A stretch of DNA of 64,000 nucleotides, from assembly GCA_014879445.1 (NCBI GenBank), contig JACSSC010000026.1, positions 2,033 through 66,032 on the forward strand. The letters are read 5' to 3'. The translations under genes were made by a program, and so were the position numbers. The notes under the pieces were generated by a model. It ran no database searches. It was not told where the DNA came from and saw only the letters and a list, made by a program, of their open reading frames with translations. This stretch comes from Candidatus Competibacteraceae bacterium. Its GTDB lineage: Bacteria; Bacteroidota; Bacteroidia; CAIKAF01. Shown here in pieces: positions 4,846-25,215 of the stretch; within the stretch, counting starts at the first letter, position 1, and each line of letters opens with the position of its first letter.

Positions 4846-5317
4846 TATGATAAAACACAAACTGCTATTTATATGCATCGTTTTGGGCTGGAGCTGTGGC
4901 TCGCCTGTAAAAAAGGAAAATGATAAAGACAAACAATTTGATTCTGAAACAGCTACACTATCCAACACCTATAATGTAGATACCGGACTGCATAACCGAA
5001 ATCAGGAATTACCCGAACCAGAAGGAAAAATTAAATCAACGGTAAACATTGCCAACACGCCTGTGTTTAAAGATCGAATAGCCACTCAAGATGATGTAAA
5101 AAATGGGCTTGCCATTTTCAGCATTGAAGGAAAAGGGAAGAAGCATACTCCGGCCAACATTAAGCTGCCGTTTTATGCTCTCATGACATATCAAAACGAA
5201 CAGGTAACAGCTATTATAGTTCAGGCAGAAGTACTAGATGGCGACACTTTGTATGGATATAAAAACGGAAAAGGAGTGATTGGCATGTGTACTTCATCCG
5301 AATTTTCGTTCAAATAA
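4838..5317 (+). CDS. Hypothetical lipoprotein
   Basis: Start overlaps the rnr stop by 8 nt. N-terminus MNNMIKHKLLFICIVLGWSCGS is a lipoprotein-type signal with Cys. No recognisable domain. Confidence 0.5.
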   Translation: MNNMIKHKLLFICIVLGWSCGSPVKKENDKDKQFDSETATLSNTYNVDTGLHNRNQELPEPEGKIKSTVNIANTPVFKDRIATQDDVKNGLAIFSIEGKGKKHTPANIKLPFYALMTYQNEQVTAIIVQAEVLDGDTLYGYKNGKGVIGMCTSSEFSFK

Positions 5318-6598: not shown

Positions 6599-8242
6599 CT
6601 ACTGAAAAAAGCTCAGATGAAGTAAGAATTCCATCGTGTCCGCCCAACGAACGAAGCGCCTCCAATAATCTGGTGACGACTTCCCTTTATACCCATCTGG
6701 CACTTCTTCTTTGCCCCCGGATGTAAGAAAACGCCTCGTGATTTTTTTTAATTTCTTACTCATATATTCATCATGTTCCATCTGCTGATAGATATTGCTC
6801 CCAAAAGTTTCGTTACGATTTTGGCACAAACTAATCTGATTATTAAATGCGCCACCGAAACAGACATCAAATACAACAAAAATCTGTTTGGCAGGAATTT
6901 TATTTATCATTTTGCCAATCTTGCTAAATGGAATATATGAATGAAGATAAGGATCTGCGTTGGGAGATTTTGATTCTTTACATACTATATAGCCCTCGTC
7001 AAAATATGTATCATTGTAGTACCCATGCCCAGCAAAAAAAATAAATAATTGTGCATTGCTGTCTAGTGTTGATGCATAATTCATAATGTTACGATATATC
7101 GAATTAGCCGAACTATCAATTAGTATTTTAGTTTGAAACCCATATGAATCTCGCAACACATTGCCGATGCTAACAGCATCAAGAACCGGGTTTGAGAGTG
7201 TGCTCCAAACGCTTTTTGCATCATAATGATCCGTGGCAATAAGCAAAGCATGCTTCCCTGAAATAGTTTGTCTAATATTAGTATGCTGACTTACCATATC
7301 AGGCCCACGTGACAAATGCTGTATGTCAGGAACAATATAAAAAAGATCTTCATAAAAAGACTTTTCAGAAAAAAGCGTTGTATAAATTCCCGAAAACCTT
7401 TCTCCTTTTAATTCTTGGGTTAACAATTCCACATATACTCTTTGCGGGGTAGTAAAAACCTGCAATAAGTTTGTTGTTTGAGAAATAAAATACATCAGTG
7501 GACCATGTGGGATATTACCATATTGATCGAGCCCGATAGTTGAAGGCAATAAGAAAACGCGGTTTTTGCTTAATAATGAAGAAACCTGCATATTCGATCT
7601 CAAAACTTTTTTTACAAACAATTTTGGAAAATCTTTATTAAACCCTGACTCCGTTATAAAAAGCTGATTTCTTGCCTGAATCAACTCGAACAAATCCTTA
7701 ATTTCTTGAGTATTGATTGCATAGTTTTTTGAAGCGATTGCCCATCTTAATGAATCATTATAATCATCCTTGACAACACCCGAATGATTTATATCATAAG
7801 TTAAAAAATAATTTTCAGAGGGGTCGAATTTTGACTCTACCGAAACCCCAGCAAATGAGAAGATAAAATAATCTTCAGGCATAGCCAATTCAATCACATT
7901 ATTGATAGCGTTCAATATATTTTCTTTAGTTGCCTGCATCTCTGTTAGCAATTGTGCATGAAAAAAAACCGAATCGTTGTCAATTAGGTACGTGGGATTG
8001 TTTTTCCCGAATACAGTATTTGGATTAATTAAGTTAACCTTGTTTTGTTTAGCTATAGTTTGAATTAGAAGTTGGGCATCTGATATGCAGTTTCGAAATT
8101 CTCCGTAAAATCCATTTTGGTTTATGCCGACAGAGATAACAAATATCCTACCACGGGGAATAGTATCCACTCCACCATCAATTTGCTTTGCAAATATTAA
8201 ATGAGATAACAAGAGTAGTAAAAAAGTAAAATAATTTTTCAT
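6599..8242 (-). CDS. Secreted peptidase C14 (caspase-fold) protein with tandem caspase-like domains. The N-terminal copy lacks the catalytic His; the C-terminal copy keeps the His-Cys dyad.
   Basis: Signal peptide MKNYFTFLLLLLSHLIFA. Second domain: KHALLIATDHY...FIFFAGHGY (His codon at 7025..7027) and QIFVVFDVCFGG (Cys codon at 6860..6862). The first domain has the parallel pattern RIFVISVGINQ...YFIFSFAGVSV, with H replaced by V. Confidence 0.7.
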   Translation of the reverse strand: MKNYFTFLLLLLSHLIFAKQIDGGVDTIPRGRIFVISVGINQNGFYGEFRNCISDAQLLIQTIAKQNKVNLINPNTVFGKNNPTYLIDNDSVFFHAQLLTEMQATKENILNAINNVIELAMPEDYFIFSFAGVSVESKFDPSENYFLTYDINHSGVVKDDYNDSLRWAIASKNYAINTQEIKDLFELIQARNQLFITESGFNKDFPKLFVKKVLRSNMQVSSLLSKNRVFLLPSTIGLDQYGNIPHGPLMYFISQTTNLLQVFTTPQRVYVELLTQELKGERFSGIYTTLFSEKSFYEDLFYIVPDIQHLSRGPDMVSQHTNIRQTISGKHALLIATDHYDAKSVWSTLSNPVLDAVSIGNVLRDSYGFQTKILIDSSANSIYRNIMNYASTLDSNAQLFIFFAGHGYYNDTYFDEGYIVCKESKSPNADPYLHSYIPFSKIGKMINKIPAKQIFVVFDVCFGGAFNNQISLCQNRNETFGSNIYQQMEHDEYMSKKLKKITRRFLTSGGKEEVPDGYKGKSSPDYWRRFVRWADTMEFLLHLSFFQ

Positions 8243-9199: not shown

Positions 9200-10041
9200 T
9201 TTTGTTGATAATATTGTATTAATTGATTCATGGGATTTTTGCAAAAGTAGCCAACAGATATTTGCTGACTACACACTTTCCTCATTTCATTTTGAAAATA
9301 ATAAGCTACCGAACCGCTGAAATGTGCTGTATTGTGTAGAGGTGTCATGTTTTGATGTTGATAATATCTCAAATGACGGCTTATCAGCATTTGAAATGAA
9401 TGCATAATAGATTGCTGCATATCCGGATGCTGCCGATGTGTATGAATAAATGGTACAAAAGATGCCAAGTAGCGATTTGGAGATAATTCGCTATATACTT
9501 GTTGAATGATATCATCCATTGTGAGATGATATGTATCCCAGAATGCTTGTTGCAAATCTTTGGGCCATTCATTGCGCATATATGAAATTAAAAGTTGTTT
9601 GCCAAGCCATGAACCACTACCCTCATCGCCTAGGAGATATCCACCCGAGGGGGCAGAGGAAAGAATTTTTTGTCCATCCCATAAACATGACGCTGATCCT
9701 GTGCCAACAATAAAAATCAAGCTCTGTTGATTATTCGACAATGCATGAGCGACTGCCATGATATCGGGATAAACCTGTATGATAGAAGAAGGAAAGAAAT
9801 GAGATAAAACATCTTGCATAATTGGTGCAGAAGTAGTATTCACACCGGCACCGTAATAATGCACTTCATCGGGACATATTTTCAAAAAGTCCGCATCAAA
9901 AATCGGTGCAATGCGCCTATGAATATCGTCTTTCGACATTTGTATCGGATTGATTCCATCAGCATCTTTTGTAGAGATATAACCTGGGCTTAGGATAGCC
10001 CAGGTTGTTTTAGTTGAACCTGCATCTGCCAACAATATCAT
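9169..10041 (-). CDS. BadF/BadG/BcrA/BcrD-type ATPase (N-acetylglucosamine kinase family)
   Basis: N-terminal MILLADAGSTKTTWAIL and GTGSA motifs typical of COG2971 sugar kinases. The 3' end overlaps the ppx start by about 31 nt. Confidence 0.8.
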   Translation of the reverse strand: MILLADAGSTKTTWAILSPGYISTKDADGINPIQMSKDDIHRRIAPIFDADFLKICPDEVHYYGAGVNTTSAPIMQDVLSHFFPSSIIQVYPDIMAVAHALSNNQQSLIFIVGTGSASCLWDGQKILSSAPSGGYLLGDEGSGSWLGKQLLISYMRNEWPKDLQQAFWDTYHLTMDDIIQQVYSELSPNRYLASFVPFIHTHRQHPDMQQSIMHSFQMLISRHLRYYQHQNMTPLHNTAHFSGSVAYYFQNEMRKVCSQQISVGYFCKNPMNQLIQYYQQKWNGLKTQNM

Positions 10042-10146: not shown

Positions 10147-11148
10147 TCATTGTACAACCAGGCGAGCCGTATGCATAGTTATCCCTCTTTGCATGTGAAT
10201 AAAATAGATTCCTGATGGCCATGCCGTTAAATCTATTGTTTGGGTTGATGCCTGTGCACTAAACGACATTATTTCTCTTCCATCAGCAGAAAAAATCCTA
10301 ACAAACCCATCATCAATGCCTGATAAAATCACATGATTAGAGGAAGGATTAGGATACAAAGAAAACTCAGTATCAGTCACAAGATCGTTTATGCTCACTA
10401 AGCAAGGAGATTGACAAACCTGCACAGTGCCATGAATGGTACCCAGGTTCAAATCAACGGCATTAGAGCCAGACAAATCACACATATCAAGTGTTCCGGT
10501 AATAATCCCTAGATTTAAACTATTGCCATCAATGCAAATCTGTCCACCACCAAGAATCGTATCTGCATTGGTAAAATCAAGATTAACACGCATTGACCCT
10601 TCCATCTGCAAAACAGCATTCACGCCACTGATTAAGCTGTCACCATTGTAGAAATAATTTCGAATTACCAGTTCTTTAGAGGGGTCTGTAAGTTTAAAAG
10701 TGCCGGTGTTCCAGAAAGATTTTTCGATATAAACATTTCCTGTTGAGAGAAACCCACCGTTGAGAGTAACATTGCTAAACAAAGAATCTGCCTCAAAAGT
10801 GCCATGATTTGATACACGTCCACCAAATAAGGCAGTGCGCTTCACATTATAATACCCATTATTTTCGAGGATGGCCGACCCCCATACGGCAATAGCACGC
10901 ATTGGATTGTCGCCAATCAGTTTTCCTGTACTTGTGATAACTACTGCGCCTGAAGTGTAGCCAAAGTCAGTATCCAAAGTAATCTGGTGCTTAATGACAA
11001 TAGAATCACCGGGCAACGGAATACAAACACAATCCCAGATAAAAGGATTAAGGGCATTGCCATTGGCAACAGATTGTCTAACATTTTGGCTGAACACTGT
11101 TGCGGCAACAAGCATAAAACCTAAAAAAGCAAGTAAACGATTTTTCAT
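10147..11148 (-). CDS. Secreted protein with T9SS type-A C-terminal sorting domain (unknown function)
   Basis: Signal peptide MKNRLLAFLGFMLVAATVFSQ. C-terminus FSLYPNPSSNHVILSG...WPSGIYFIHM...RLVVQ is Por_Secre_tail-like. Confidence 0.7.
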   Translation of the reverse strand: MKNRLLAFLGFMLVAATVFSQNVRQSVANGNALNPFIWDCVCIPLPGDSIVIKHQITLDTDFGYTSGAVVITSTGKLIGDNPMRAIAVWGSAILENNGYYNVKRTALFGGRVSNHGTFEADSLFSNVTLNGGFLSTGNVYIEKSFWNTGTFKLTDPSKELVIRNYFYNGDSLISGVNAVLQMEGSMRVNLDFTNADTILGGGQICIDGNSLNLGIITGTLDMCDLSGSNAVDLNLGTIHGTVQVCQSPCLVSINDLVTDTEFSLYPNPSSNHVILSGIDDGFVRIFSADGREIMSFSAQASTQTIDLTAWPSGIYFIHMQRGITMHTARLVVQ

Positions 11149-11206: not shown

Positions 11207-11623
11207 CTATTCCAACATCTCGTAGTCATCGAAAGTGTCAGAATTTTCAGATTGTTTTGAGTCGGTGGGTGGTTTACGATGAACTTTGATTTCTGTTTTA
11301 AAGAGGGGCTCGGGTTTAAATTTAAGCAATTCGGCAATATCTACTTTCAATGCATGGGCAATTTCCATCAACGTATCAATGGTGAAATTATGTTTGCCAC
11401 TAAGCCATTTGCTGATTTCGGAAGGCGACTTACCCAAAATCGCTGCAAATTCAGATTTGCTTATGCCTTTATTTTTTAGAAAATTTTCGATGTTTTGGGC
11501 CAGGTTAAACTTTGTTTCAACCTGAACTTTCTCCACTTCCTTCATGCCTTCCAGCAAGGCCTTGAGTAAATTATCCCTAAACAAGGATTTTTTTGGTTGT
11601 TTGCTAAACATATCCGATTTCAC
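11207..11623 (-). CDS. XRE-family helix-turn-helix transcriptional regulator
   Basis: HTH_3-like segment ISKSEFAAILGKSPSEISKWLSGKHNFTIDTLMEIAHALKVDIAELL, with an acidic C-terminal tail. The track start is GTG at 11623; an alternative ATG lies at 11611. Confidence 0.7.
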   Translation of the reverse strand: MKSDMFSKQPKKSLFRDNLLKALLEGMKEVEKVQVETKFNLAQNIENFLKNKGISKSEFAAILGKSPSEISKWLSGKHNFTIDTLMEIAHALKVDIAELLKFKPEPLFKTEIKVHRKPPTDSKQSENSDTFDDYEMLE

Positions 11624-11658: not shown

Positions 11659-12126
11659 TCATTTATCCTCGTTTTCTATTTGCCTAATCACTTCTGAAAT
11701 ATCATCATGCGAATACCCTTTTTGAAAAAGAAACATTCTAAGTTTATTTTTCTTTTCATAAGGATGAGCTGCTTTGATATTATCCCATTTTTTTGTTGCC
11801 AAATGATATAAAACATGGCGATAATTTTCATGTTCGATACTCTCTATGGCTTCTTTTATATAATCGGTATTAATAGCACGGCGCTTCAGCTCAATTTCAA
11901 TTTTTTTCTTTCCCCACTTTTTTAATGATGAACGGGCATGGGCATACATACGAGCAAATCGGCGATCGTCAACATAACCATCAGCAACCAACTTATTGGC
12001 GATTTCTTCAGCACGTATCTTATCAATTCCCGATTTTAGGCATTTTTCAATCACTTCCGAAAAACAGCGTTCGCGGTAAGCACACCATTTTGAAATTTTC
12101 TCATATCCATAATCTCTACTGCTCAT
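11659..12126 (-). CDS. recX: Recombination regulator RecX
   Basis: RecX-like pattern (DDRRFARMYAHARSSLKKWGKKKIEIELKRRAI), ~155 aa. ATG at 12126 overlaps the upstream gene's TGA (TGATG), which suggests translational coupling. Confidence 0.85.
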   Translation of the reverse strand: MSSRDYGYEKISKWCAYRERCFSEVIEKCLKSGIDKIRAEEIANKLVADGYVDDRRFARMYAHARSSLKKWGKKKIEIELKRRAINTDYIKEAIESIEHENYRHVLYHLATKKWDNIKAAHPYEKKNKLRMFLFQKGYSHDDISEVIRQIENEDK

Positions 12127-12572
12127 CAATTGTACACATATATCAATGCGCCGTCGAAACTAGTGCTGTATTGCTTAAGAGGATAAATGGCAGGGCCATC
12201 CACATTGCTTCCATTAATAAGATTAAATCGAGATCCACAACCTGACCCAGAGCAATCGTTATCCACGAGTAATAATCCGTTATCATCCACACTAACACGA
12301 CCACAGGGGTTCTCACTATCATACGGACAATGTCTTTCGTAGCAATTCACTTGATCAATAGAGGCCCTATACAATATTAATCCGCGTGATCCGCCATTCA
12401 AATATGCCCACCCTCCAACGGCCTGCAACGAAATAAATTGAGGTTCGAAAGTGCTTATTGTAACATTTATCGGCACATCAGGAATGTTGACCGGATACTG
12501 ATAGTTACAAGAAAACATAGAAGCCAAAACCAACATGAGAGAATAAATAGATACGCTCAGTTGCCATTTCAT
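12126..12572 (-). CDS. Hypothetical Cys-rich lipoprotein (148 aa) with Rieske box-2-like spacing
   Basis: N-terminus MKWQLSVSIYSLMLVLASMFSC is a lipoprotein signal. Motifs NCYERHCPY and DCSGSGCGSRFNLINGSNVDGP. Immediately upstream of recX and overlapping it by 1 nt. Confidence 0.5.
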   Translation of the reverse strand: MKWQLSVSIYSLMLVLASMFSCNYQYPVNIPDVPINVTISTFEPQFISLQAVGGWAYLNGGSRGLILYRASIDQVNCYERHCPYDSENPCGRVSVDDNGLLLVDNDCSGSGCGSRFNLINGSNVDGPAIYPLKQYSTSFDGALIYVYN

Positions 12573-12594
12573 TTTATACCTTTATACTGTGTTT

Positions 12595-14805
12595 ATGACA
12601 AAGATAACGAATTACACGGGCATTTGTGTATATCTTCTGCTGTTAACAGGGCAACATATCCCTATTTGGTCGCAACTATCCATACATCATGGGGTTACAC
12701 TACCTACACGCGATACTGTTCGGGCATTGATTATTTTTGCCGAAGTAGATTATATGGATGGGCCATGCCCCAAAGACCTTCCCGACGAATTTCAAGGACA
12801 ATGGACACGTCTGCCTGATGGTAGCAGAGGTCTGCCGGCAAATGCGGATATCTATTTAGATCCTATCATTTCTAACCAGCCCAAGGGTTATATTACAAGC
12901 TATTATTACGAAGCATCTTTTGGTCAATATGTACTCCTGGGCGATTATCTTCCTTTTGTGGTTCGTGTTCCCTGTCATCAGATTAAACAAGGGCTCAATC
13001 TTGAGCAAACCTTACGCATCATTGATCAGCGAGCTGATGGTCAACCTCTATCAACGGCTCATGGCATACCTCTCACTTCCTTTGATCTTTGGAGCGAAGC
13101 CCCCCCCGGCCATATCAAGCCCAAAATACCCGATGGAAAAATAGATTTGGTATATCTGATTTGGCGAAATAATCGATTCCTAAGTGGATATAATACATGG
13201 GACAATTCAGGATATGGCGTAACACAAGTCAAAGGTATTCCCTTTTGTGGTATGCAGGGCGTTAATAATGCAGCATCTTTCAACAACTCATGGGGTGATG
13301 AGCATGGGTTTCACATTACCATTGCCGAACATTTACATGCCATATTTGGAGGCAATCACTGGCATTCGGGCGGAGGAAGAGGTATTCATACTTTTTTGGC
13401 AATACCATACAATTATGGATTAACCGGGCAGCTCGAAGCTACTATGCAAGCCGTTTGCGGCTGGGATCGTTGGATGATGAAATGGAAAAATCCAAAAAAA
13501 AAATTCCTGATTTCTGTACTTGATTCTTCATTGATGGAAATAAATACAGAAGATTTTAATATAAAAACTCATCCAACAGGAGGAATGTTTTATTTACGCG
13601 ACCATGTTCAAACCGGCGATGCCATTCGTATTCGACTGCCATATTTCAATTGGGAAAAAGAAGGCGACATCAAAAACCAATATCTTTGGCTCGAATATAG
13701 AGATTTCGCCACCCGATTTGACCAGTACATGAAAACCGGTGAGGCAGAATGTAGCGATCATCATCCTGAATACCCTAATGGCACACCCGGATTATACGCA
13801 TACATTCAAGTTGGCAAGGATCAGCGAGAAGGTGAGCATATTTATCACGCCCGCCCCTCTCTTCCCAATGGATTAGCCAGTTGGCTTCTTCCCCTCACTG
13901 CTGAGGGCAATCATGACTTTCATTATCGGTATGACAAAATACCCGACCCTCTGCCCGGATGTGGCAGCTGGGGCAATAAAACGATTCCGGTTGAATTAGC
14001 AAAAAGTAAACCCAATCCATTCACAGGTCACTCCGACCTTTTTCGTATCACCGATTCCAATCAAGATGGGAAATTATATTCAGGCGACGATCTTCAGCCA
14101 GGGCTGGCAGATATGTGGGGTGATTCGGTTTGGTTTAATTATCATCGCAATGGAGATAAAGATGATGCCTTCTGTTTTAAAAATAAAAAAACCCGCCTTT
14201 CGATTAGTACCAATCCTGCGCCCGTTCCGGTTTACACCTATGCTACCGATTACGAATACAATCAATTTTATTTTACATCCGGTGCCCAGCAAAGTCGTTT
14301 TGAAAACCGCAGTATTGCGCTGAATGGGTTATCTATTGAAATCATAAGGGAAGATGATAACGGTCCGGTAGGCAAAGCTATATTGGTTCATATTAGATGG
14401 GATGATTATGTAGTCAATCAATCTGTACGATGGTGTGGCCATATTGAATTGCGTCCGCATGCATTTAATCCTGAGAAGCCCTCATTAATCTTAGAAAGAA
14501 ACAAAAGCATATTGCTTGACCGTAGCGAATCTCCGACTTATCACACAAACAAAGGGGTTAGTGATAGGGGGATATATTGGTTTTCTGACACTACTGTATT
14601 TGTCGGGCTTCCTGGTGCAAATATCCAACTACAAACAGGTGCAAGAATTGAATTAAAAAATGGAAGTCGGCTTGAACTTCGTGATGGAAGTCAACTGGAA
14701 ATGGGCAAAAAAAGTCGCATTATAATACATCGTGGCTCTGCACTGATACAACATACAGGCGCAAAAATCGTTAAAGCAAAAGGTGCAAAAATTATTTTCA
14801 AATAA
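12595..14805 (+). CDS. Large hypothetical secreted protein (737 aa)
   Basis: The track start (12589) is GTG; the first ATG is at 12595. N-terminal hydrophobic signal, His-rich segment GDEHGFHITIAEHLHAIFGGNHWHSGGG, EF-hand-like loop DSNQDGKLYSGDD, and C-terminal beta-strand-like repeats (GANIQLQTGARIELKNGSRLELRDGSQLEMG). No family recognised. Confidence 0.6.
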   Translation: MTKITNYTGICVYLLLLTGQHIPIWSQLSIHHGVTLPTRDTVRALIIFAEVDYMDGPCPKDLPDEFQGQWTRLPDGSRGLPANADIYLDPIISNQPKGYITSYYYEASFGQYVLLGDYLPFVVRVPCHQIKQGLNLEQTLRIIDQRADGQPLSTAHGIPLTSFDLWSEAPPGHIKPKIPDGKIDLVYLIWRNNRFLSGYNTWDNSGYGVTQVKGIPFCGMQGVNNAASFNNSWGDEHGFHITIAEHLHAIFGGNHWHSGGGRGIHTFLAIPYNYGLTGQLEATMQAVCGWDRWMMKWKNPKKKFLISVLDSSLMEINTEDFNIKTHPTGGMFYLRDHVQTGDAIRIRLPYFNWEKEGDIKNQYLWLEYRDFATRFDQYMKTGEAECSDHHPEYPNGTPGLYAYIQVGKDQREGEHIYHARPSLPNGLASWLLPLTAEGNHDFHYRYDKIPDPLPGCGSWGNKTIPVELAKSKPNPFTGHSDLFRITDSNQDGKLYSGDDLQPGLADMWGDSVWFNYHRNGDKDDAFCFKNKKTRLSISTNPAPVPVYTYATDYEYNQFYFTSGAQQSRFENRSIALNGLSIEIIREDDNGPVGKAILVHIRWDDYVVNQSVRWCGHIELRPHAFNPEKPSLILERNKSILLDRSESPTYHTNKGVSDRGIYWFSDTTVFVGLPGANIQLQTGARIELKNGSRLELRDGSQLEMGKKSRIIIHRGSALIQHTGAKIVKAKGAKIIFK

Positions 14806-15319
14806 TCACATTGTTGTTATAAGCTTCATACTTGCATGCCTTTGTGCAAGTGTGCAAAGCAACGTGCTATTTGCTCAAAAACGCAATCCCAAAATTGAGC
14901 GTACGACCGTAAAAGATGCTCCAGAAGAAACCAAGCACAATAAAAAAAACGTACGCCCTAAAAAAAGAAAAAAATTACAATCGCGTGACTTTATCAACCA
15001 CAAATACAGTATGCGAAAAAAAATGACGGCAAAAGAAAAAAGACAAGTTGATAAAATAGCCGGGGTGGATAGAAAAAAAGTGAGAAAAGAAAAAAAGAAA
15101 GAAAAGAAAACAGATAGGTATTTTAAAAAAGAAGAGCGAAAATTGCGTCGTAAACACATGCGATTGCAAGATCCTGACGTACGGAAAAGAATGCGAAAAA
15201 ACTTCCGTAAAACTAAAAAGGAGTTTATATCGCTTCAACAAAAAAAGAGAAAAAGCCCATTAAACAAAAAACCCGGAAAGCCCAAAAAACGCAAGCGACA
15301 TACGCTGCCTAAACCATAA
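14783..15319 (+). CDS. Hypothetical extremely basic (Lys/Arg-rich) low-complexity protein with a putative signal peptide
   Basis: GTG start at 14783, overlapping the previous stop. After MQKLFSNNHIVVISFILACLCASVQSNVLFAQ the protein is about 45% K/R. Strand is uncertain, because K-rich coding produces F/L-rich antisense ORFs. Confidence 0.4.
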   Translation: MQKLFSNNHIVVISFILACLCASVQSNVLFAQKRNPKIERTTVKDAPEETKHNKKNVRPKKRKKLQSRDFINHKYSMRKKMTAKEKRQVDKIAGVDRKKVRKEKKKEKKTDRYFKKEERKLRRKHMRLQDPDVRKRMRKNFRKTKKEFISLQQKKRKSPLNKKPGKPKKRKRHTLPKP

Positions 15320-17678: not shown

Positions 17679-20600
17679 TTATTTAACCACAATGCGGGTA
17701 ATGGCATTATGCTTTCCGGCCACCACACGAACCAGATAAGTACCGGCTGCATATGAACTGAAATCAACATCTGCTACAAAATAAGCTTGATGTACGCCCA
17801 TATTACGCATCCAAATTACTTTGCCGGCAAGATCCATCACAGATACATATACTATTTCAGTTCCATCAAATGTAAATGAAATACGAGAAAACTCATCTGT
17901 TGGGTTAGGATATACCGTCAACAGCTCTTCTGACTCGCTTTCGATACCATTAAACTGAACATCAATTTCAACCGTTTGAGTAACCGTTGTTGTTCCACAA
18001 TCATTGGTAACGGTCAATGTAACTGTATAAATACCTTCATTGGCATAGATGTGTACCGGATTCATCTCCGTTGATGTATTGCTATCACCAAAATCCCAAA
18101 AATAACTAGTTGCATTGGTTGAAGTATTCGTAAAGGCAGCCGAGTAGAAGCTAACGGAAGACGTGAAACTACCAGAAGGATTAGGAAAATCCGTTACAAT
18201 TACTGTATCAATAGCTAGTCCGCAATTTGAAATTACCTGCACAAAATATGTGGCAGGAACCAATGCGGTAATAGATGGTGTATTTTGGAAGAATGGGCTC
18301 CAGTTGTAAGTTGATCCGGCAATTACAGGAGCAGCAATCAGAACAGAATCAGAAGGACATTTAATCAAATCCGGTCCGAGCGTAAAGCCCGCAACCGAAA
18401 CAAATTCATCAGCGCCAATATCAGGGGTAGATGCATGGCGAGGATCACCGTCAAAATCAACTGAAACGCCGGCTATAGGTGTTGCGGCACCATCCAACTC
18501 GGTACGACAAGTATGAAGATCTGATCCGTTGAAATTAGGATTTAAAGATAAAGAAGCAGCATCAAATCCGGTAGCATTTTGCCAGTCGGCTAATGTAGCA
18601 TAGGTTGTTGTACCTAATGCAACAACATCCGTTCCGGCAACAAACAAGTTGTTATGGTTTGAGTTGGAAATATAAAACGCTGATTCGGAAAGAATGGCCA
18701 ATCCTGCACCGGCATTCATTATATTGTTGTTGATAATATCAATACCATTTGAACTACCATTAAACAAACGCAAAGCGCCCGAAGAAGTTGAAGTGCTTGA
18801 TGAGTAGAGAGAATTAAATACAACCTGAGTATTGCTCACATCTTGCAATGCAATACATTCGCTATAGGTAGGATCAATATTGATTCCCATATACACCATA
18901 TTATTGGCTACTAAAGATGGATTTGAAGGGTTGGCATCTATATTTACCAAATTGATACCAAAACCACCTTGAATACCGCCAACATGATTGCCGGTAACAA
19001 CAGTTCCATCCATAACTTGTTCGAGGTCTATGTGAAAAATATTTCCAATTCCATTTGAGGCAGAAGACATTACTTGATTGTTTCTTATTTCCGGACGAAT
19101 TTGGTTAACCAAAACTATTCCGGCCTGATAATATTGAGATATCGTGTTGTTATAGATTTCCAAACCTGACTCCATTAATACATTGCTTTGGCCAAACAAC
19201 CAAATAGCTCTTGATCCGCCAAAGATTTGATTGTTGCGAATAATAAGGTTATTGTCGTTTCCATCAACAGAGTTGATCGTATGCTTGTTGGCATCTACGG
19301 CAGCAGCCATGGTGTCGCCCATCAGCACACAATTTTCAATGATGATATCCTCTGAACCATTTTTAAGAGAAACTACAGTTGAGAAAAATGCCATATTTTG
19401 CAATGTTATCTCGTTAAGGGTAACACGATCAGCACCATTAAAGCCCACCACAAAGTTATTCGCAGTAGAGAAAGGCATAAAATCAAAAGTTACGTCAGTA
19501 GCATTTTGTGTTTCAGATTGAATTGTCAATCGGTAATTGCCTGCGCCTACTTCAGGGAAGGTGGCGATTTCTACCTGTTCGGTATATGTGCCCGGACGAA
19601 CATTCAAAGTAACATCTCCACATATTCCACGCAGCTCAATCGCATCTATGGCATCATTAAGCGTCGCAAAATCTGGTATTGTGCCATACACGGTATATAT
19701 ACCACTCATAGCGTCATAAACCTGACGAGTAATGGTGTCGTTGCCATCGTATTCGTCAGGATTCCCATTGGGATTCTCTGTCCAGATTTTCACTATATCT
19801 CCATCATTAAAATTGAAATATCCCAAGTCAACTTGTGTCGTTTGGTTTGAAGTCAGCAGCCCAGTCCAGTTGTATGTCATTACTGTAGTATTATTCACAT
19901 TCACTACAATATCAGCGGATGTAAGATCATTAACACCAATGGTCGTCAACAGCACTTTAATCGTATCCTCTACTGAGCAAGAAAGCGAAGGCGAAACAGA
20001 AGGAGAGACGATGGTAGCTATACCGGCGTCATCATTGGGGAGAGGGCGAATATCAACCAAATAATCTTCAGTTTCGCCCCAAGTATAGGTGCCACAAGGA
20101 GTAACTGTAGAAGCACTTCCCGATTCTCTACAAACTACACGCATGCCTGTAACGCCCGTTAAAGCACCCGGCGGAATGGTAATATTACCCAAAACTGAGC
20201 TTTGAGTTAAGGCGCTGGCGGGTCCGCCCATCACCAATTCGGCTGGGTCAGCATAAACGCCATCCTGATTAAAATCAATATACACTTCAACATAGCGACT
20301 ATTAAAACCGGAATTTTCACAATCCCGTGTGCTGATAACTGATGGATAGGATTGAGTTTTGAAGAATGCCGGCACCGGCGTAAGGGTAGTAAAATTCTGA
20401 TATCCGGTACAAACACCAAAACTTTGATTTACAAAAGACCCGATACGTACTGTATCAATATATTCATCAGCAGTAGAAGTAGCATTGGATGCACAATAGC
20501 AATTATAGAATGGCGTAACCATAACCTGTAATGGAGCAGAAGAATCTGTTTGGGCGCTACATGTAGCCATTGCCCTAAAATAAGTACTAGCAGCTAAATT

Positions 20601-21428
20601 AGTACTATAAGTTGCGCTGGTTGCCCCGGGAATGTTTGTCCATGTAATCCCATCAGGCGAAGATTGCCATTGATAGGTTTGGCCTAATCCGCCAGTTCCT
20701 CCAGTAAGTGATAAATACAACATTTGAGAAGGGCAAACAGGATTAGCAGAAGCTGTCGTTACACCGGCTACAGGAGGAGCGGTACAAGGAAGAGCCGGCT
20801 CAACCGTAACAGACCCTGTAAAGTAACGTGGAGTAAGTGTTAATCCCGTACCTGATCCAGAATAACCTACATTAAACCCTGCAATTTGTTGAGTACCTAC
20901 CTTCAAATTTACACCTGCCCCAGAAAAAATATTATTATCTGGAGAAAGAGGAGACCCAGTTCCACTATATCTAACACTTCCCGGACCTTGATTTTCTAAG
21001 GCAAAACGATATTCTGTTGATGCTGGAATTGTGAAACTCAGGCCAACAAAATTAATCGGTGCAATTCCTGAAGCAATAGCTGGTGTTGGAGAAGATGTAG
21101 CAATCAAATTCCAGTTGCCACTTTCACAATTGGTCGTGGAATTAGATAATTCAGTAGCCGTATAAAAAAGACGCCAAACCGAATTATTATCAGCTGTAGT
21201 AAGATAGTTTCCTATTCCTGTGAGCAACATTGGAAAAGGATTAGTATTCTGTATAACAAAAGAAATTTGCCCTCCGGCACCTAGTGAGTTCGTTCCTGTA
21301 TATGGTGGGAAAGGACCTGTTGTAAGTGTTGTCTGTGCTATAGTTACAGATGTAAAAAGCATCATGGCCAGTGCCGATAGACACAAATTGCGTATGCTTT
21401 TATTGATTGTGTTGTAGATTCTATACAT
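17679..21428 (-). CDS. Giant secreted T9SS cargo protein (1249 aa): GEVED-like motif, right-handed beta-helix repeats, PKD domain, T9SS type-A C-terminal domain
   Basis: Signal peptide; CGTYTWGETEDY motif; beta-helix repeat region (NNNIMNAGAG...); PKD signature YFWDFGDSNTSTEMNPVHIYANEGIYTVTLTVTNDCG; C-terminal Por_Secre_tail (LLTVYPNPTDE...GTYLVRVVAG...RIVVK). Confidence 0.85.
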   Translation of the reverse strand: MYRIYNTINKSIRNLCLSALAMMLFTSVTIAQTTLTTGPFPPYTGTNSLGAGGQISFVIQNTNPFPMLLTGIGNYLTTADNNSVWRLFYTATELSNSTTNCESGNWNLIATSSPTPAIASGIAPINFVGLSFTIPASTEYRFALENQGPGSVRYSGTGSPLSPDNNIFSGAGVNLKVGTQQIAGFNVGYSGSGTGLTLTPRYFTGSVTVEPALPCTAPPVAGVTTASANPVCPSQMLYLSLTGGTGGLGQTYQWQSSPDGITWTNIPGATSATYSTNLAASTYFRAMATCSAQTDSSAPLQVMVTPFYNCYCASNATSTADEYIDTVRIGSFVNQSFGVCTGYQNFTTLTPVPAFFKTQSYPSVISTRDCENSGFNSRYVEVYIDFNQDGVYADPAELVMGGPASALTQSSVLGNITIPPGALTGVTGMRVVCRESGSASTVTPCGTYTWGETEDYLVDIRPLPNDDAGIATIVSPSVSPSLSCSVEDTIKVLLTTIGVNDLTSADIVVNVNNTTVMTYNWTGLLTSNQTTQVDLGYFNFNDGDIVKIWTENPNGNPDEYDGNDTITRQVYDAMSGIYTVYGTIPDFATLNDAIDAIELRGICGDVTLNVRPGTYTEQVEIATFPEVGAGNYRLTIQSETQNATDVTFDFMPFSTANNFVVGFNGADRVTLNEITLQNMAFFSTVVSLKNGSEDIIIENCVLMGDTMAAAVDANKHTINSVDGNDNNLIIRNNQIFGGSRAIWLFGQSNVLMESGLEIYNNTISQYYQAGIVLVNQIRPEIRNNQVMSSASNGIGNIFHIDLEQVMDGTVVTGNHVGGIQGGFGINLVNIDANPSNPSLVANNMVYMGINIDPTYSECIALQDVSNTQVVFNSLYSSSTSTSSGALRLFNGSSNGIDIINNNIMNAGAGLAILSESAFYISNSNHNNLFVAGTDVVALGTTTYATLADWQNATGFDAASLSLNPNFNGSDLHTCRTELDGAATPIAGVSVDFDGDPRHASTPDIGADEFVSVAGFTLGPDLIKCPSDSVLIAAPVIAGSTYNWSPFFQNTPSITALVPATYFVQVISNCGLAIDTVIVTDFPNPSGSFTSSVSFYSAAFTNTSTNATSYFWDFGDSNTSTEMNPVHIYANEGIYTVTLTVTNDCGTTTVTQTVEIDVQFNGIESESEELLTVYPNPTDEFSRISFTFDGTEIVYVSVMDLAGKVIWMRNMGVHQAYFVADVDFSSYAAGTYLVRVVAGKHNAITRIVVK

Positions 21429-21492: not shown

Positions 21493-24400
21493 TTATTTAA
21501 TAATAATACGTACTGTTCTTTGATAATCACCAGCCCGAACCTTCATCAAATAAGTTCCGGCAGCTTGTCCTGTAATATCCATCATGGTGCTCAATCCATT
21601 GGTTGCGCTTCCCATTACCGATTGATGTATCAATCGTCCTGACAAATCATAAATATCAATCCAAACCTGATTGCTCACAACAGGTGCTAAGGCAACTGCA
21701 AATAATCCTTCTGAAGGATTAGGATACACCTGAAGCTGCAATGCCTCTTCATCTTCTAGCCCCGCCACATTGGGATTAATCACAATTACTTGAGAAGTAA
21801 CAGATGAATCGCCACAGTCGCTGTAAGCTGTTAATGTTACAGTATATGTGCCATTGGTTGGGTAAATATGATTGGGATTTTCAACAGTTGATGTATTGCC
21901 ATCTCCAAAATCCCAAAAATATGATGTAGCTTGTGAGGAATTGTTGCTGAAAGCAGCAGTAAAGAAGTTTTGATTATATGTGAAAGTGGCTGAAGGTGTA
22001 GAATAATTGGCAACCACAATCGAGTCCACTGAAATACCGCAAGCATGTATAATCTGAACAATATATGTTCCTGGCTGAGTAGCATAAATACCCGGTGTAT
22101 TTTGGAAGTATGGGCTCCAATAATAGGATGCACTTTCGATTTGTTCGGCACCCAACCAAACACTATCTGACGGACATTTTATCAAATCAGCGCCAAGCGT
22201 AAAGTTGGCTGATGATAAAAATTCGTCAGCGCCGATATCTGGCGTTGAAGTATTGCGTGTATCCTGATCAAAGTCGTGAGTTACTCCGGCAACGGGGATA
22301 CCGGCATTATCAAGCTCCACACGACAGGTATGCAAATCAGCACCATTAAACATTGGATCAACAGATAAAGAATTCAGCTCTTTTCCTGTAGCTGTCTGAA
22401 GCGCCGACAAATCGGCCATATTGGTTCCTACCCTAACAAAATTAGCAGAAGAAGTAAAATAATTGTTATGATTAGCTATATCTAAATACAAGGCAGATTC
22501 GCTATTTAAAGCAAATCCACTTCCTGCATTTACAATATTATTATTAAGAAGCGTAATACCTGACGACTGTCCATTATATACTCGAATACCGGCAGCTGTA
22601 GCTGTGGTTGCACGTGTGTGAACAGAATTGAATACAATATTCACATTGGCACATTCCTGTACTGCAATACCATGGCTATTGGTTGGCGAACCGGTAGCTC
22701 CCATATATACAAAGTTGTTAGCAATCAAACTTGGAGAGCCGGGTTGGGCGTCCACATCCAATAGATTAATTCCAAAACCGCCTTGATCGCCGGAAATAAG
22801 ATTTCCGGTTACTTCAGCGCCATTCAATACATCCTCTAAACTAATGTGGAAAATATTAGTGTTTGTATTTGAAGAATGGGATTGAATATTATTTTGCTTG
22901 ATAGCTGGTCCTGTTTGGCGAAGACCCACAATCGCTGCCGCCCTATAACGGCGAAATGTGTTATAAGCAACCAACAAGCCCGATTCAACTTCGGTAACAC
23001 TTGGGCCTGCTAAATAAATACCATACGAGCCACCTATTATGATGTTATGCTCAATTCTAGTTCCATTGTCAAGCCCATCAACTGAGCCAATTGCTATTTT
23101 GTTGGTCGTAGTGGTGGTTGCCAAACTATCGCTATACACATTACAATATTGTACAGCAATATTATTGTTACCACCCAACAATCTAACTACTCCAGAAAAT
23201 GTTGTGGAAGTATTGGCTAAAGTAAGACGGTTCAGTATGATGTTTTGGGATTGATTAAATCCAAATACATAATTCAGAGCTGTCGAAGTGGCCATATATT
23301 CAAAACGCACATCACTGGCATTCAAAGATTCTGACTGAATAGTAACCGTATATGAGCCGGTAGATGGATAAGGACCAACCAGCACTTGCTCATTATAGGT
23401 GCCTGCACGTACATTAAAAAATACATCACCGCAAATACCACGCAACTCAAGTGCTTCAATGGCATCATTCATTGTAGCAAAGTCGGGAGTAGTACCATAT
23501 ACGGTATAAACACCATTAAGCGCATCATACCCGATTACACTCATGCTATCGTTGAAGGCAAATTCATCCGCAACACCATTCGGGTTAGTAACCCAAACCA
23601 AAACCGTATCGCCATCATTCAAGCTAACTGCTCCTAAATTAACAGTAGTAGTTTGCCCTGAGGTAATACTGCCGGCCCAATTGTATGATGTAATAGTTGT
23701 GCCATTTACCGAAACATGAATCGTAGCACTGGTAAGCGTTGCGGTGCCAATTGTTGTAAGTGATACTACAACAAAATCATCCACGCTACATCCTCCAGTA
23801 GGCGGGTTAGAAGGAGAAATAATTTCGGCAATACCTGCATCATTTGCCGGTTGTGGAGCAATATTTACCATATAATCTTCCGTCTCTCCCCAGGTATAAG
23901 TACCACAAGGCATAACTGAATTAGGGTCAGAGCTTTCGAGTAAAACTACACGCATGCGTGTAATACCGGTGCTAGCCGTAACAGGAATGTTAACCACACC
24001 CGTAAAATCTTCAGCCGGAGTGGATGCAGTGGTTGGGCCAAATGCAAATACGGCTTCCTGAGGCAAATCAAAAATACCATTTTGATTATAGTCAATAAAT
24101 ACTCTACCCACTCTTGTATAAGAGCCACCGCATGTGCCCGATCTTACCAAGATAGGGTAAGAAATACCCTGAAACATCACACCAACCGGAGAAGAAACAT
24201 TGGTATAAGTTTCACAAGCAGTTGGTGAAGAAATATTATCAATATTAGATATCTTAACCCTGTCTATCTTAGAATCAGCTGTACTGGTAGCATTTGAAGC
24301 GCAGTAGCAATTAAAAAATGGTTGAAGTGTTACATTCTCAATACTGGTTGTATCACTTTGAGCAGAGCAAGTAACTACTGCTCGGAAAAAGATGTTGGAA

Positions 24401-25215
24401 TTGATGGTCGCATTATAAGTTGAGTTTGTTGCGCCTGAGATGTCGGTAAAAGTAATACCATCAGGTGATGATTGCCACTGATACGTTTGGCCTGAACCCA
24501 TCGTACCTCCTGTAATTGACAGGGTTACATTTGTGCCCGGACAAACAGGATTAGCACTGGCAAGAGCCATGCCTGCGGTTGGGGGTGCCGTACAAGCCGA
24601 ACCCGAGATATAAGTGATTTGCATGGCAGGTCGGGTAAATCCGGGGCCACTTGTAAGTCCGGTTGTCATGCTACACCCAACTTGACCATCATCATACTGC
24701 CCTGCATAGGCATTAAATGCATAATCATCTGACTGCACGGTGCTGCTACCATTCCAAGATGCATTATCAAAACAAACCTCTACAACAATATTATCTGAGC
24801 CATTCCAAATAAAGCTAGTGGCGAATGTGTATGTATTCCATCCCAAAGTTGGAGCAGACACGGCTTGAGAAAAACAAGTTGTAGAAGTTGGCAAAACCCC
24901 ACCAGGGTGAGCGCCCAATGCCGTATGGCCCATCTTAATCGAAAATCCGTTTAGGGGGTCGCCACTTGAAGATGTTACATTAAATCCCAATGCAGTAATA
25001 TTGCTGCTGGGAGTAAGGCCGGCTGACGATAATTCTGATGCTAAAATAATATATTGCACCCTGCCATCCTCCCAAAGTGTACCATAAGGAGTAATGCCTG
25101 ATGAGCCGGTAGTAGATAATCCCGCTCCTATTTGAACGGTTTGCGATAAAGCCGAAACCGATAAAAGTATCGCCAATCCGATTGACATTGATAAACAACG
25201 TAAGATTTTATTCAT
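21493..25215 (-). CDS. Giant secreted T9SS cargo protein (1240 aa), paralog of 17679..21428 with the same domain order
   Basis: Shares blocks with the neighbour: TYQWQSSPDGITF, CGTYTWGETEDY, YTVYGTTPDFATMNDAIEALELRGICGDV, PKD YFWDFGDGNTSTVENPNHIY, and a C-terminal Por_Secre_tail (LQVYPNPSEG...GTYLMKVRAG...RIIIK). Confidence 0.85.
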   Translation of the reverse strand: MNKILRCLSMSIGLAILLSVSALSQTVQIGAGLSTTGSSGITPYGTLWEDGRVQYIILASELSSAGLTPSSNITALGFNVTSSSGDPLNGFSIKMGHTALGAHPGGVLPTSTTCFSQAVSAPTLGWNTYTFATSFIWNGSDNIVVEVCFDNASWNGSSTVQSDDYAFNAYAGQYDDGQVGCSMTTGLTSGPGFTRPAMQITYISGSACTAPPTAGMALASANPVCPGTNVTLSITGGTMGSGQTYQWQSSPDGITFTDISGATNSTYNATINSNIFFRAVVTCSAQSDTTSIENVTLQPFFNCYCASNATSTADSKIDRVKISNIDNISSPTACETYTNVSSPVGVMFQGISYPILVRSGTCGGSYTRVGRVFIDYNQNGIFDLPQEAVFAFGPTTASTPAEDFTGVVNIPVTASTGITRMRVVLLESSDPNSVMPCGTYTWGETEDYMVNIAPQPANDAGIAEIISPSNPPTGGCSVDDFVVVSLTTIGTATLTSATIHVSVNGTTITSYNWAGSITSGQTTTVNLGAVSLNDGDTVLVWVTNPNGVADEFAFNDSMSVIGYDALNGVYTVYGTTPDFATMNDAIEALELRGICGDVFFNVRAGTYNEQVLVGPYPSTGSYTVTIQSESLNASDVRFEYMATSTALNYVFGFNQSQNIILNRLTLANTSTTFSGVVRLLGGNNNIAVQYCNVYSDSLATTTTTNKIAIGSVDGLDNGTRIEHNIIIGGSYGIYLAGPSVTEVESGLLVAYNTFRRYRAAAIVGLRQTGPAIKQNNIQSHSSNTNTNIFHISLEDVLNGAEVTGNLISGDQGGFGINLLDVDAQPGSPSLIANNFVYMGATGSPTNSHGIAVQECANVNIVFNSVHTRATTATAAGIRVYNGQSSGITLLNNNIVNAGSGFALNSESALYLDIANHNNYFTSSANFVRVGTNMADLSALQTATGKELNSLSVDPMFNGADLHTCRVELDNAGIPVAGVTHDFDQDTRNTSTPDIGADEFLSSANFTLGADLIKCPSDSVWLGAEQIESASYYWSPYFQNTPGIYATQPGTYIVQIIHACGISVDSIVVANYSTPSATFTYNQNFFTAAFSNNSSQATSYFWDFGDGNTSTVENPNHIYPTNGTYTVTLTAYSDCGDSSVTSQVIVINPNVAGLEDEEALQLQVYPNPSEGLFAVALAPVVSNQVWIDIYDLSGRLIHQSVMGSATNGLSTMMDITGQAAGTYLMKVRAGDYQRTVRIIIK

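Follow-up and report, generated by a model that had tools for sequence, protein, structure and literature searches.

A divergent gene pair for a Rieske-fold lipoprotein and a polybasic protein in uncultured Bacteroidota, with a metallopeptidase-like gene inserted in a minority lineage

The DNA analyzed here (the window) is a stretch of 64,000 nucleotides (nt) from contig JACSSC010000026.1 of assembly GCA_014879445.1 (positions 2,033 to 66,032, forward strand), deposited as a Candidatus Competibacteraceae bacterium and placed by GTDB in the Bacteroidota (Bacteroidia; CAIKAF01). It carries a block of three genes, encoding a 148-residue lipoprotein (12126..12572, minus strand), a 736-residue secreted protein, hereafter the large protein (12595..14805, plus strand), and a 178-residue polybasic secreted protein (14783..15319, plus strand). 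Comparison with related loci indicates that the ancient unit is the divergent lipoprotein/basic pair, and that the large gene, which encodes a peptidase-like protein, is an insert found in a minority lineage, where it is tightly coupled to the basic gene. A first-pass annotation, made from the window alone, had described the three as a cluster of secreted proteins that match no recognized family, and as a candidate for an undescribed function. The trio does recur in other genomes, but the widely conserved unit is the pair, and the large gene is a lineage-specific addition; likewise, none of the three proteins reaches the threshold of a curated family, but structure prediction gives two of them known folds, Rieske-like for the lipoprotein and M6/InhA-like for the core of the large protein. 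The large protein forms a new branch, as yet without a name, of a known peptidase fold and is set apart by an unusual motif; the lipoprotein has a known fold too, but in a version that carries no cluster, and the basic protein belongs to an uncharacterized small family. The interpretation we prefer, to which we give slightly less than an even chance, is that of an envelope module, in which a Rieske-fold lipoprotein and a polybasic exported partner have been joined by a recruited thuringilysin-like peptidase with a ligand-migrated site and a β-helix, co-translated with the basic protein and acting with or on it.

Arrangement and conservation of the gene block

The lipoprotein and large genes lie head to head, and the spacing of roughly 22 bp first noted between them is exactly 22 nt between the two divergent ATG codons (12573..12594). 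The large open reading frame (ORF) runs from an ATG at 12595, for which a GTG at 12589 is an alternative start, to 14805; the length originally given as 737 residues is off by one and corresponds to the codon count if the stop is included. The basic ORF begins with GTG and shares its first 23 nt with the end of the large ORF; the next gene is lysS. The start codon of the basic ORF is supported by the homologue in one related locus (L003), which has an ATG at the aligned position and the same 23-nt overlap. In relatives, the start-to-start gap between the lipoprotein and large genes is also short, approximately 13 to 110 nt, or the ORFs overlap. Since all three genes have many homologues in which their adjacency is conserved, the arrangement of the block is not due to chance.

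Database searches placed none of the three proteins in a well-known family. No Pfam or NCBIfam match is better than E = 0.006 (15 bits against a cut-off of 479), no match to PDB sequences is better than E = 0.069, and profile searches of the PDB gave no significant family assignment. PADLOC returned no match at E <= 0.01, and hence no known anti-phage defence system. The C-terminal sorting domain of the type IX secretion system (T9SS; Por_Secre_tail, TIGR04183) was not found in any of the three in the Pfam and NCBIfam scans, and family searches detected no second member of the three families within the window.

Linkage was assessed from the side of the large gene in 52 GTDB species-representative loci, all of them in metagenome-assembled genomes (MAGs) assigned to Flavobacteriales, 'Bacteroidia' or Bacteroidota. 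The basic gene lies immediately downstream in 29 of 50 loci, in nearly all cases at a distance of -46 to +66 nt and mostly of 0, -1, -4, -11, -23 or -46 nt, a pattern indicative of translational coupling. The lipoprotein gene is divergent and upstream in 20-22 loci. All three genes occur together in at least 17 species-level MAG loci and three metagenome contigs, and the co-occurrence that the first-pass annotation had proposed looking for is thus present. Loci without the lipoprotein gene (L010-L017, L024) still have the basic gene beside the large gene. In about 20 of the 50 loci neither partner is adjacent, and the neighbours of the large gene are gatB and an ABC transporter; the same is true of distant orthologues (38-40% identity), which have no lipoprotein or basic partner and are followed by gatB and the ABC transporter.

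From the side of the lipoprotein, the pair is far more frequent than the trio. A metagenome scan with the lipoprotein profile gave 527 positive stretches, from which 80 loci were taken; three further loci (L053-L055), in which the lipoprotein gene is directly head to head with a basic-family gene and the large gene is not adjacent, brought the set to 83. Of these, 78 contain a lipoprotein ORF and at least approximately 350 nt upstream of it, and about 73 are assessable. A basic-family gene is divergently adjacent to the lipoprotein gene in 62 of the 73 (hidden Markov model [HMM] E values from 1e-6 to 1e-21), and the large gene lies between the two in three metagenome loci (L057, L058 and L065). 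Among the 12 loci classed as 'other', three have only about 390-440 nt upstream, and two carry a basic gene that runs into the lipoprotein ORF as called; with at least these five set aside, the 78 loci are reduced to the approximately 73 that could be assessed. Next to the basic gene, on the same strand, 23-24 loci have a gene encoding a 1,240-residue CarboxypepD_reg/Plug/TonB-dependent-type barrel, sometimes with a gene for a single-pass membrane protein of about 145 residues between them. On the other side, ahcY, ACPS and PcrB follow the lipoprotein gene. The barrel and membrane protein genes were searched for in the window and are absent from it; lysS follows the basic gene instead, which places a rearrangement breakpoint immediately after the basic gene.

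It may be that the three genes encode functionally unrelated exported proteins in a conserved stretch of chromosome, their tight spacing being merely a feature of compact genomes. Each gene is found without the others, the flanking housekeeping genes differ between lineages, and the linkage to recX described below is clearly recent. However, the lipoprotein/basic adjacency found in most assessable loci persists down to 37% lipoprotein identity, and at 42% identity the large and basic genes are still neighbours, their stop and start codons overlapping. Moreover, where rearrangements have separated the basic gene from one partner, it is still found with the other, which makes it, as far as gene order indicates, the hub of the block. 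We consider a set of unrelated genes unlikely.

The membrane protein of about 145 residues is encoded between the basic and barrel genes in eight of the numbered loci (L002:8872-9318, L003:8901-9335, L009, L019, L020, L025, L026 and L028). Its N terminus forms a transmembrane helix (MEDFSTIIYIVFIIL...), its middle part is acidic and variable, and its C terminus carries the conserved motif W-x-x-A-I-[IV]-x-S-E-[IV]-L-x-[RK]-P. The protein has no NCBIfam match and may be a further member of the module.

The lipoprotein: a Rieske fold without cluster ligands

The lipoprotein contains six cysteines, at positions 22, 77, 82, 90, 107 and 112, in agreement with its initial description as Cys-rich. 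A hydrophobic leader precedes Cys22, which 193 of 194 non-identical homologues share; the signal peptide and lipobox, through the Cys22 codon, occupy 12507..12572 (minus strand). A signal peptide and a lipobox with an invariant cysteine are the features by which bacterial lipoproteins processed by signal peptidase II are recognized, and lipidation is accordingly predicted. The mature protein is acidic (isoelectric point [pI] 4.3, family median 4.9). A single-sequence search yielded 28 homologues and a profile search at least 769 clusters.

An AlphaFold (AF2) model built from 24 homologues, with a predicted local distance difference test (pLDDT) score of 83, matches Rieske-fold proteins exclusively among the top 50 Foldseek matches in the PDB. 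These comprise Rieske proteins, Rieske-type ferredoxins, Rieske oxygenase subunits and cluster-less NirD-type proteins, the best match being 9rk4_A (E 3e-4, template modelling score 0.69 relative to the target). The family profile agrees, in that its C-terminal half aligns to the Chlorobaculum Rieske protein 8hn2, with D-D-C-C-G opposite the C-P-C-H-G of Rieske box 2; the aligned region includes G-x-x-F and the 'P-L-K-Q-Y' strand.

The residues that would hold the cluster are, for the most part, replaced. In the degenerate box 1 (E79-R80-H81-C82; 12327..12338, minus strand), the ligand cysteine has become Glu or Asp and the histidine is kept; in the degenerate box 2 (D104..F116, DNDCSGSGCGSRF; 12225..12263, minus strand), the alignment to 8hn2 shows Asp104 in place of the ligand cysteine and Cys112 in place of the ligand histidine. 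The ligand pattern C-x-H...C-x-x-H thus reads [D/E]79-R80-H81...D104-x-C-C112 (or D104-N-D-C-S-G-S-G-C112), and only one of the four ligands, H81, is retained. The replacements are themselves strongly conserved. Among the 194 homologues, D or E occurs at position 79 in 194, R80 in 192, H81 in 193, C82 in 190 and D104 in 192, and C90 and S114 are, like D/E79, R80, H81 and D104, essentially invariant. C82 and C112 covary (C/C in 190, T/S in three and T/D in one), and their joint loss fits a disulfide pair.

A search against the Pfam Rieske models found no Rieske family at E <= 1, and the homologue clusters carry no precomputed Pfam domains. The possibility that the lipoprotein is a true Rieske iron-sulfur protein was rejected because the cluster ligands are absent. 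From the model and the conservation pattern, we conclude that it has a Rieske fold without a 2Fe-2S cluster and bears instead a conserved carboxylate/His site. Some homologues are nevertheless labelled 'nitrite reductase/ring-hydroxylating ferredoxin subunit' or 'Rieske Fe-S protein' by JGI despite lacking the ligands; these labels are probably over-annotations at the level of the fold, and such entries are likely mis-annotated.

Two groups of known proteins are comparable. Rieske [2Fe-2S] proteins and ferredoxins, such as the soluble domain of kuste4569 (9rk4), 8hn2 and the carbazole dioxygenase ferredoxin (2de7), share the fold, but the window protein, which has about 125 residues when mature, is a lipoprotein, and no genes for redox partners lie near its own. 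NirD-type proteins, three of which (2jo6, 3c0d and 4aiv) are among the weaker Foldseek matches, likewise have a Rieske fold without a 2Fe-2S cluster. However, NirD is the cytoplasmic small subunit of nitrite reductase, whereas the window lipoprotein is predicted to be exported, forms a pair with a polybasic protein, and shows invariant residues of its own (D/E-R-H, D104 and S114).

The polybasic protein

The third ORF, originally described as overlapping and extremely basic, fits that description closely. The 178-residue protein has a signal peptide (residues 1-31, cleavage A|Q) and 147 mature residues, of which 43.5% are lysine or arginine (K+R), for a net charge of about +48. It belongs to a family (HMM from alignment A4, E 6.7e-21) in which the mature part is typically shorter, at about 75 residues, and less charged, the median net charge being close to +20 and the K+R content 37%. 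Signal peptides in the family end in A/S/G|Q, and a few members carry a lipobox instead. In Bacteroidetes, a glutamine commonly follows the signal peptide cleavage site, the so-called Q-rule (PMC5837995); a glutamine follows the predicted site in both the large and the basic protein, matching that rule. The family signature, RKHMRLQDPDVRKRMRK in the window (15149..15199, plus strand), was derived from alignment A4 and sequences from 67 further loci and has the consensus K-R-H-x-x-I-Q-x-K-x-T-R-K-R-M-K-K. Approximately half of the family members end in an EFFLKRWF-like motif. None of 19 members compared with the curated Pfam families gave a match.

An artefactual, low-complexity ORF was considered as an explanation for the basic gene and rejected, because the gene belongs to a conserved family whose signal peptide and signature motif recur in more than 90 loci.

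The region of the basic gene has a composition of its own. Between 14700 and 15300, the AT skew reaches +0.44, a strong purine and A bias arising from lysine codons (AAA/AAG), and the GC content is 0.355, compared with 0.397 for the window. In two loci, basic-family genes occur side by side (L005:9430-9741 and 9750-10031; L064:3236-3517 and 3519-4850), and one of the L064 genes is an ORF of 443 residues. The basic module can thus apparently be duplicated, or fused to a larger protein, in some genomes.

A strongly cationic secreted protein, about half of whose family ends in an amphipathic motif, invites comparison with antimicrobial or toxin-like peptides. In such a scheme, the acidic lipoprotein would be the immunity or neutralizing partner, and the peptidase, whose gene is coupled in some lineages, the maturation enzyme. 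However, the pair occupies one syntenic position in the core genome across many lineages, whereas bacteriocin loci are usually patchy and mobile. There are, furthermore, no transporter or immunity-type genes nearby, no PADLOC match and no GC anomaly, and a toxin function seems very improbable.

The large protein and its putative metal site

The large protein consists of a signal peptide (residues 1-26, S26|Q27), a metallopeptidase core, β-rich middle domains and a C-terminal β-helix domain that starts at about residue 600 (14392..14802, plus strand) and has a regular 8-residue strand spacing. In the structural model, the core has the thuringilysin-like (M6/InhA-like) metallopeptidase fold, of which it appears to be a distant relative. 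Identity to M6 InhA/thuringilysin proteins (Bacillus anthracis InhA2, 4yu5/4yu6; Vibrio PrtV) is 10-16%, and the C-terminal β-helix is not part of InhA.

Sequence models of the M6 family do not recognize the window protein, which has no match to PF05547 (Peptidase_M6) or TIGR03296 at E <= 1; nor do any of 50 members of its subfamily match Peptidase_M6, or any other family significantly, in Pfam. Only some distant relatives that retain HExxH come closer. Five of eight have sub-threshold NCBIfam matches to TIGR03296 (E 2.5e-5 to 5e-3, 17-24 bits against a cut-off of 110.8), and one of ten has a sub-threshold Pfam match to PF05547 (E 2.7e-3, 17.4 bits against a cut-off of 22). These matches provide a transitive sequence link to M6 that agrees with the fold result.

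The family is sizeable. A word-seeded single-sequence search found 193 or more homologues, all from uncultured Bacteroidota, annotated as 'hypothetical' and without Pfam domains. An HMM scan of 1.84 billion representatives detected 1,226 clusters at E <= 1e-3 and 500 at E <= 1e-30; the clusters are defined at 50% identity, and this total, like that for the lipoprotein, is to be read as 'at least'. Longer relatives (900-2,500 residues) carry T9SS sorting domains (in paralogues elsewhere, P0149, P0161, P0177 and P0288), Laminin_G_3, GEVED, dockerin or further β-helix domains, and these accessory domains suggest that the family is typically extracellular. Among secreted peptidases of the phylum, karilysin and mirolysin from Tannerella are T9SS-secreted, metzincin-like zinc peptidases of other catalytic families (matrix metalloproteinase-like, pappalysin-like). 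The longer paralogues share the T9SS sorting domain with them, but the window protein lacks it and has an altered motif.

The most unusual feature is the remodelled zinc-site motif A244-E245-H-L-H248-A-I-F-G-G-N254-H-W-H257...H265 (13324..13389, plus strand), located on and just after the active-site helix. Helix 237-250 carries E245 and H248 and is followed by G252, N254 and H257. In an alignment of 255 family members to the family HMM, E245, H248 and H257 are invariant (255 of 255). Position 244, in contrast, is the canonical His of HExxH in 74 members and Ala in 120, including the window protein. The 74 have the full motif HE[FY]xHxxxGGNN[FW]H, with the third His 13 residues after the first. 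The thuringilysin motif is HExxHxxGxxD, with Asp as the third ligand, and that of metzincins is HExxHxxG/NxxH/D (PMC12237041). The family motif, HExxHxxxGGNNxH, resembles the metzincin consensus but has a longer spacing, and the subfamily of the window protein lacks the first His, reading AExxH with H265. Met295, in a nearly invariant 'DRWMMxW', is a candidate Met-turn residue.

Loss of His244 is accompanied by the appearance of another histidine 21 residues downstream. H244 and H265 are almost mutually exclusive, with H244 only in 71 members, H265 only in 150, both in three and neither in 29; put differently, H265 is present in 150 of 179 sequences without H244 and in three of the 74 with it. 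The third or fourth metal ligand thus appears to switch between His244 and His265, and we read the swap as a probable migration of a zinc ligand, by which the site would have been preserved rather than decayed. Such a migration is testable, and it bears on how peptidase motifs that look dead are annotated.

The alternative is that the large protein is no longer an enzyme. As a pseudo-peptidase, it would act as an adhesin or as a binding protein at the surface or in the periplasm, the metzincin-like scaffold and β-helix stalk having been kept while catalysis was lost with the replacement of the first zinc His by Ala. Nearly half of the aligned relatives share that Ala, 29 relatives without H244 also lack His265, the C-terminal domain resembles the β-helices of adhesins and autotransporters, and longer relatives add the lectin-like Laminin_G_3 and GEVED domains. 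However, dead enzymes usually lose the catalytic Glu and their motif drifts, whereas here Glu245 and two His are invariant across the alignment, and the near-exclusive swap of H244 and H265 looks like a compensation that preserves a three-ligand site. A catalytically dead protein is thus, in our view, quite unlikely, and an active peptidase with a migrated ligand is the reading retained here.

A recent horizontal insertion of the large gene was also considered and rejected, as there is no GC anomaly. In one locus (L047, CAZXFT010000001.1), up to four tandem large-family copies or fragments are present, one of 1,319 residues, which suggests local expansion of the family in some genomes. The Bifidobacteriaceae label on that record is probably a binning or labelling error.

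The control region

The first-pass annotation had proposed overlapping promoters and shared regulation for the divergent genes. A generic scan for sigma-70 promoters and terminators performed no better than on shuffled sequence, and Rfam searches of the whole window at gathering thresholds found no RNA element. The promoter scan then used the -7 consensus of Bacteroidota sigma-A, TAnnTTTG. In Flavobacterium psychrophilum, this box is located at -12..-5, and the median leader is 24 nt (PMC9723704). A perfect TAnnTTTG, TATCTTTG, is found on the minus strand at 12606->12599, within codons 2-4 of the large gene, and is a candidate -7 box for the lipoprotein gene. It is the only perfect box near the locus; the density in the window is 0.63 per kb per strand, and the expectation of finding one by chance 20-60 nt upstream of a start codon is about 2.5%. 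The predicted transcript would start at about 12594, with a 22-nt leader and the box at -12..-5. Despite its position within coding sequence, the box is kept as TATATTTG in L001 and as TATCTTTG in L003.

On the opposite strand, a near-consensus box, TACCTTTA (seven of eight positions; 12577..12584, plus strand), is a weak candidate for the promoter of the large gene, whose leader would then measure about 6 nt. It is found as TACCTTTA in L001 and as TATCTTTC in L003. If both boxes are real, each lies inside the transcribed leader of the other promoter, which points to competition rather than simple co-regulation. Overlap of the divergent promoters is therefore plausible, in view of the perfect box inside the first codons of the large gene, but the shared regulation first envisaged is not what the predicted geometry favours; if anything, it would make the two promoters mutually exclusive.

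A possible envelope module

The proposal that best accommodates these observations starts from an old, conserved pair, transcribed divergently from a very short control region. One member would be an acidic lipoprotein at the outer face or in the periplasm, in which the iron-sulfur site has been replaced by an Asp/Glu-His-Asp constellation, possibly stapled by two disulfides; the other would be a small, exported, extremely basic and probably helical protein. In the lineage of the window, a gene for a secreted zinc-metallopeptidase-like protein appears to have been placed between the two and translationally coupled to the basic gene. All three proteins would be exported by the Sec pathway. In the peptidase, Glu245 would serve as catalytic base, and His248, His257 and His265 would bind the metal, the last replacing the lost first His of HExxH. 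Made together, the peptidase and the basic protein may share a target in the envelope, or each may have the other as its target; the polybasic protein could, for instance, hold the enzyme at anionic surfaces of the envelope, or be processed by it there. The lipoprotein would be the membrane-anchored partner of the basic protein.

Several observations weigh against this proposal. The homologues all derive from uncultured genomes or metagenomes, and all of them are labelled 'hypothetical'. Each protein is also found without the others, and most lipoprotein/basic pairs are without a peptidase. The pair is embedded in a long syntenic block, between the gene for the 1,240-residue barrel and the genes ahcY, ACPS and PcrB, so that part of the adjacency could be inherited gene order and not function. 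The large protein of the window has no T9SS sorting domain, and export of a protein with a net charge of +20 to +48 is unusual. Finally, the assignments of H265 to the metal site and of the Met-turn are candidates drawn from sequence patterns.

In its most specific form, the proposal would make the pair the core of an undescribed envelope module of Flavobacteriales-like Bacteroidota, to which one lineage recruited a peptidase from an unnamed family of more than 1,000 clusters, in which a zinc ligand would have moved off the HExxH helix into a loop farther downstream. Taken as a whole, we regard this version as doubtful. The value of the analysis lies in annotation and in hypotheses; it touches no long-standing open question, and the block is not a new kind of system. 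Nonetheless, a fold or a family description is now available for three sizeable Bacteroidota families that are annotated as 'hypothetical' and lie outside all curated models, and the lipoprotein/polybasic pair is a starting point for work on the envelope of uncultured Flavobacteriales from aquatic and wastewater habitats.

Neighbouring genes and other features of the window

Directly downstream of the lipoprotein gene, on the same strand, is a recX-like gene (11659..12126, minus strand; RecX_HTH2 1.5e-13 and RecX_HTH3 5.8e-11 in Pfam). The TGA stop of the lipoprotein gene (12128..12126) and the ATG of recX (12126..12124) share one base to form TGATG, the overlap through which the first-pass annotation had described the two as translationally coupled. 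However, recX is next to the lipoprotein gene only in close relatives (L001-L003 and the metagenome contigs L056 and L057), and this adjacency therefore says nothing about function. A functional link to recX was rejected, since recX is adjacent only in relatives with at least 67% identity, and elsewhere ahcY follows the lipoprotein gene.

Directly downstream of recX is a gene (11207..11623, minus strand) for a 138-residue Cro/C1-type helix-turn-helix protein (HTH_3, 1.5e-13). It is 86% identical in the closest relative, L001, and absent from the other related loci, and could be a local regulator. Farther away, a 547-residue protein (6599..8242, minus strand) has a caspase domain in its C-terminal half (Peptidase_C14, E 2.3e-16) and an N-terminal region of 330 residues without assignment.

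On the other side of the block, two tandem paralogous genes (17679..21428 and 21493..25215, both minus strand) encode T9SS cargo proteins of about 1,240 residues with GEVED, PKD and Por_Secre_tail domains. A 333-residue protein with a T9SS tail is also encoded in the window, at 10147..11148. Together, these genes indicate that the organism uses a type IX secretion system.

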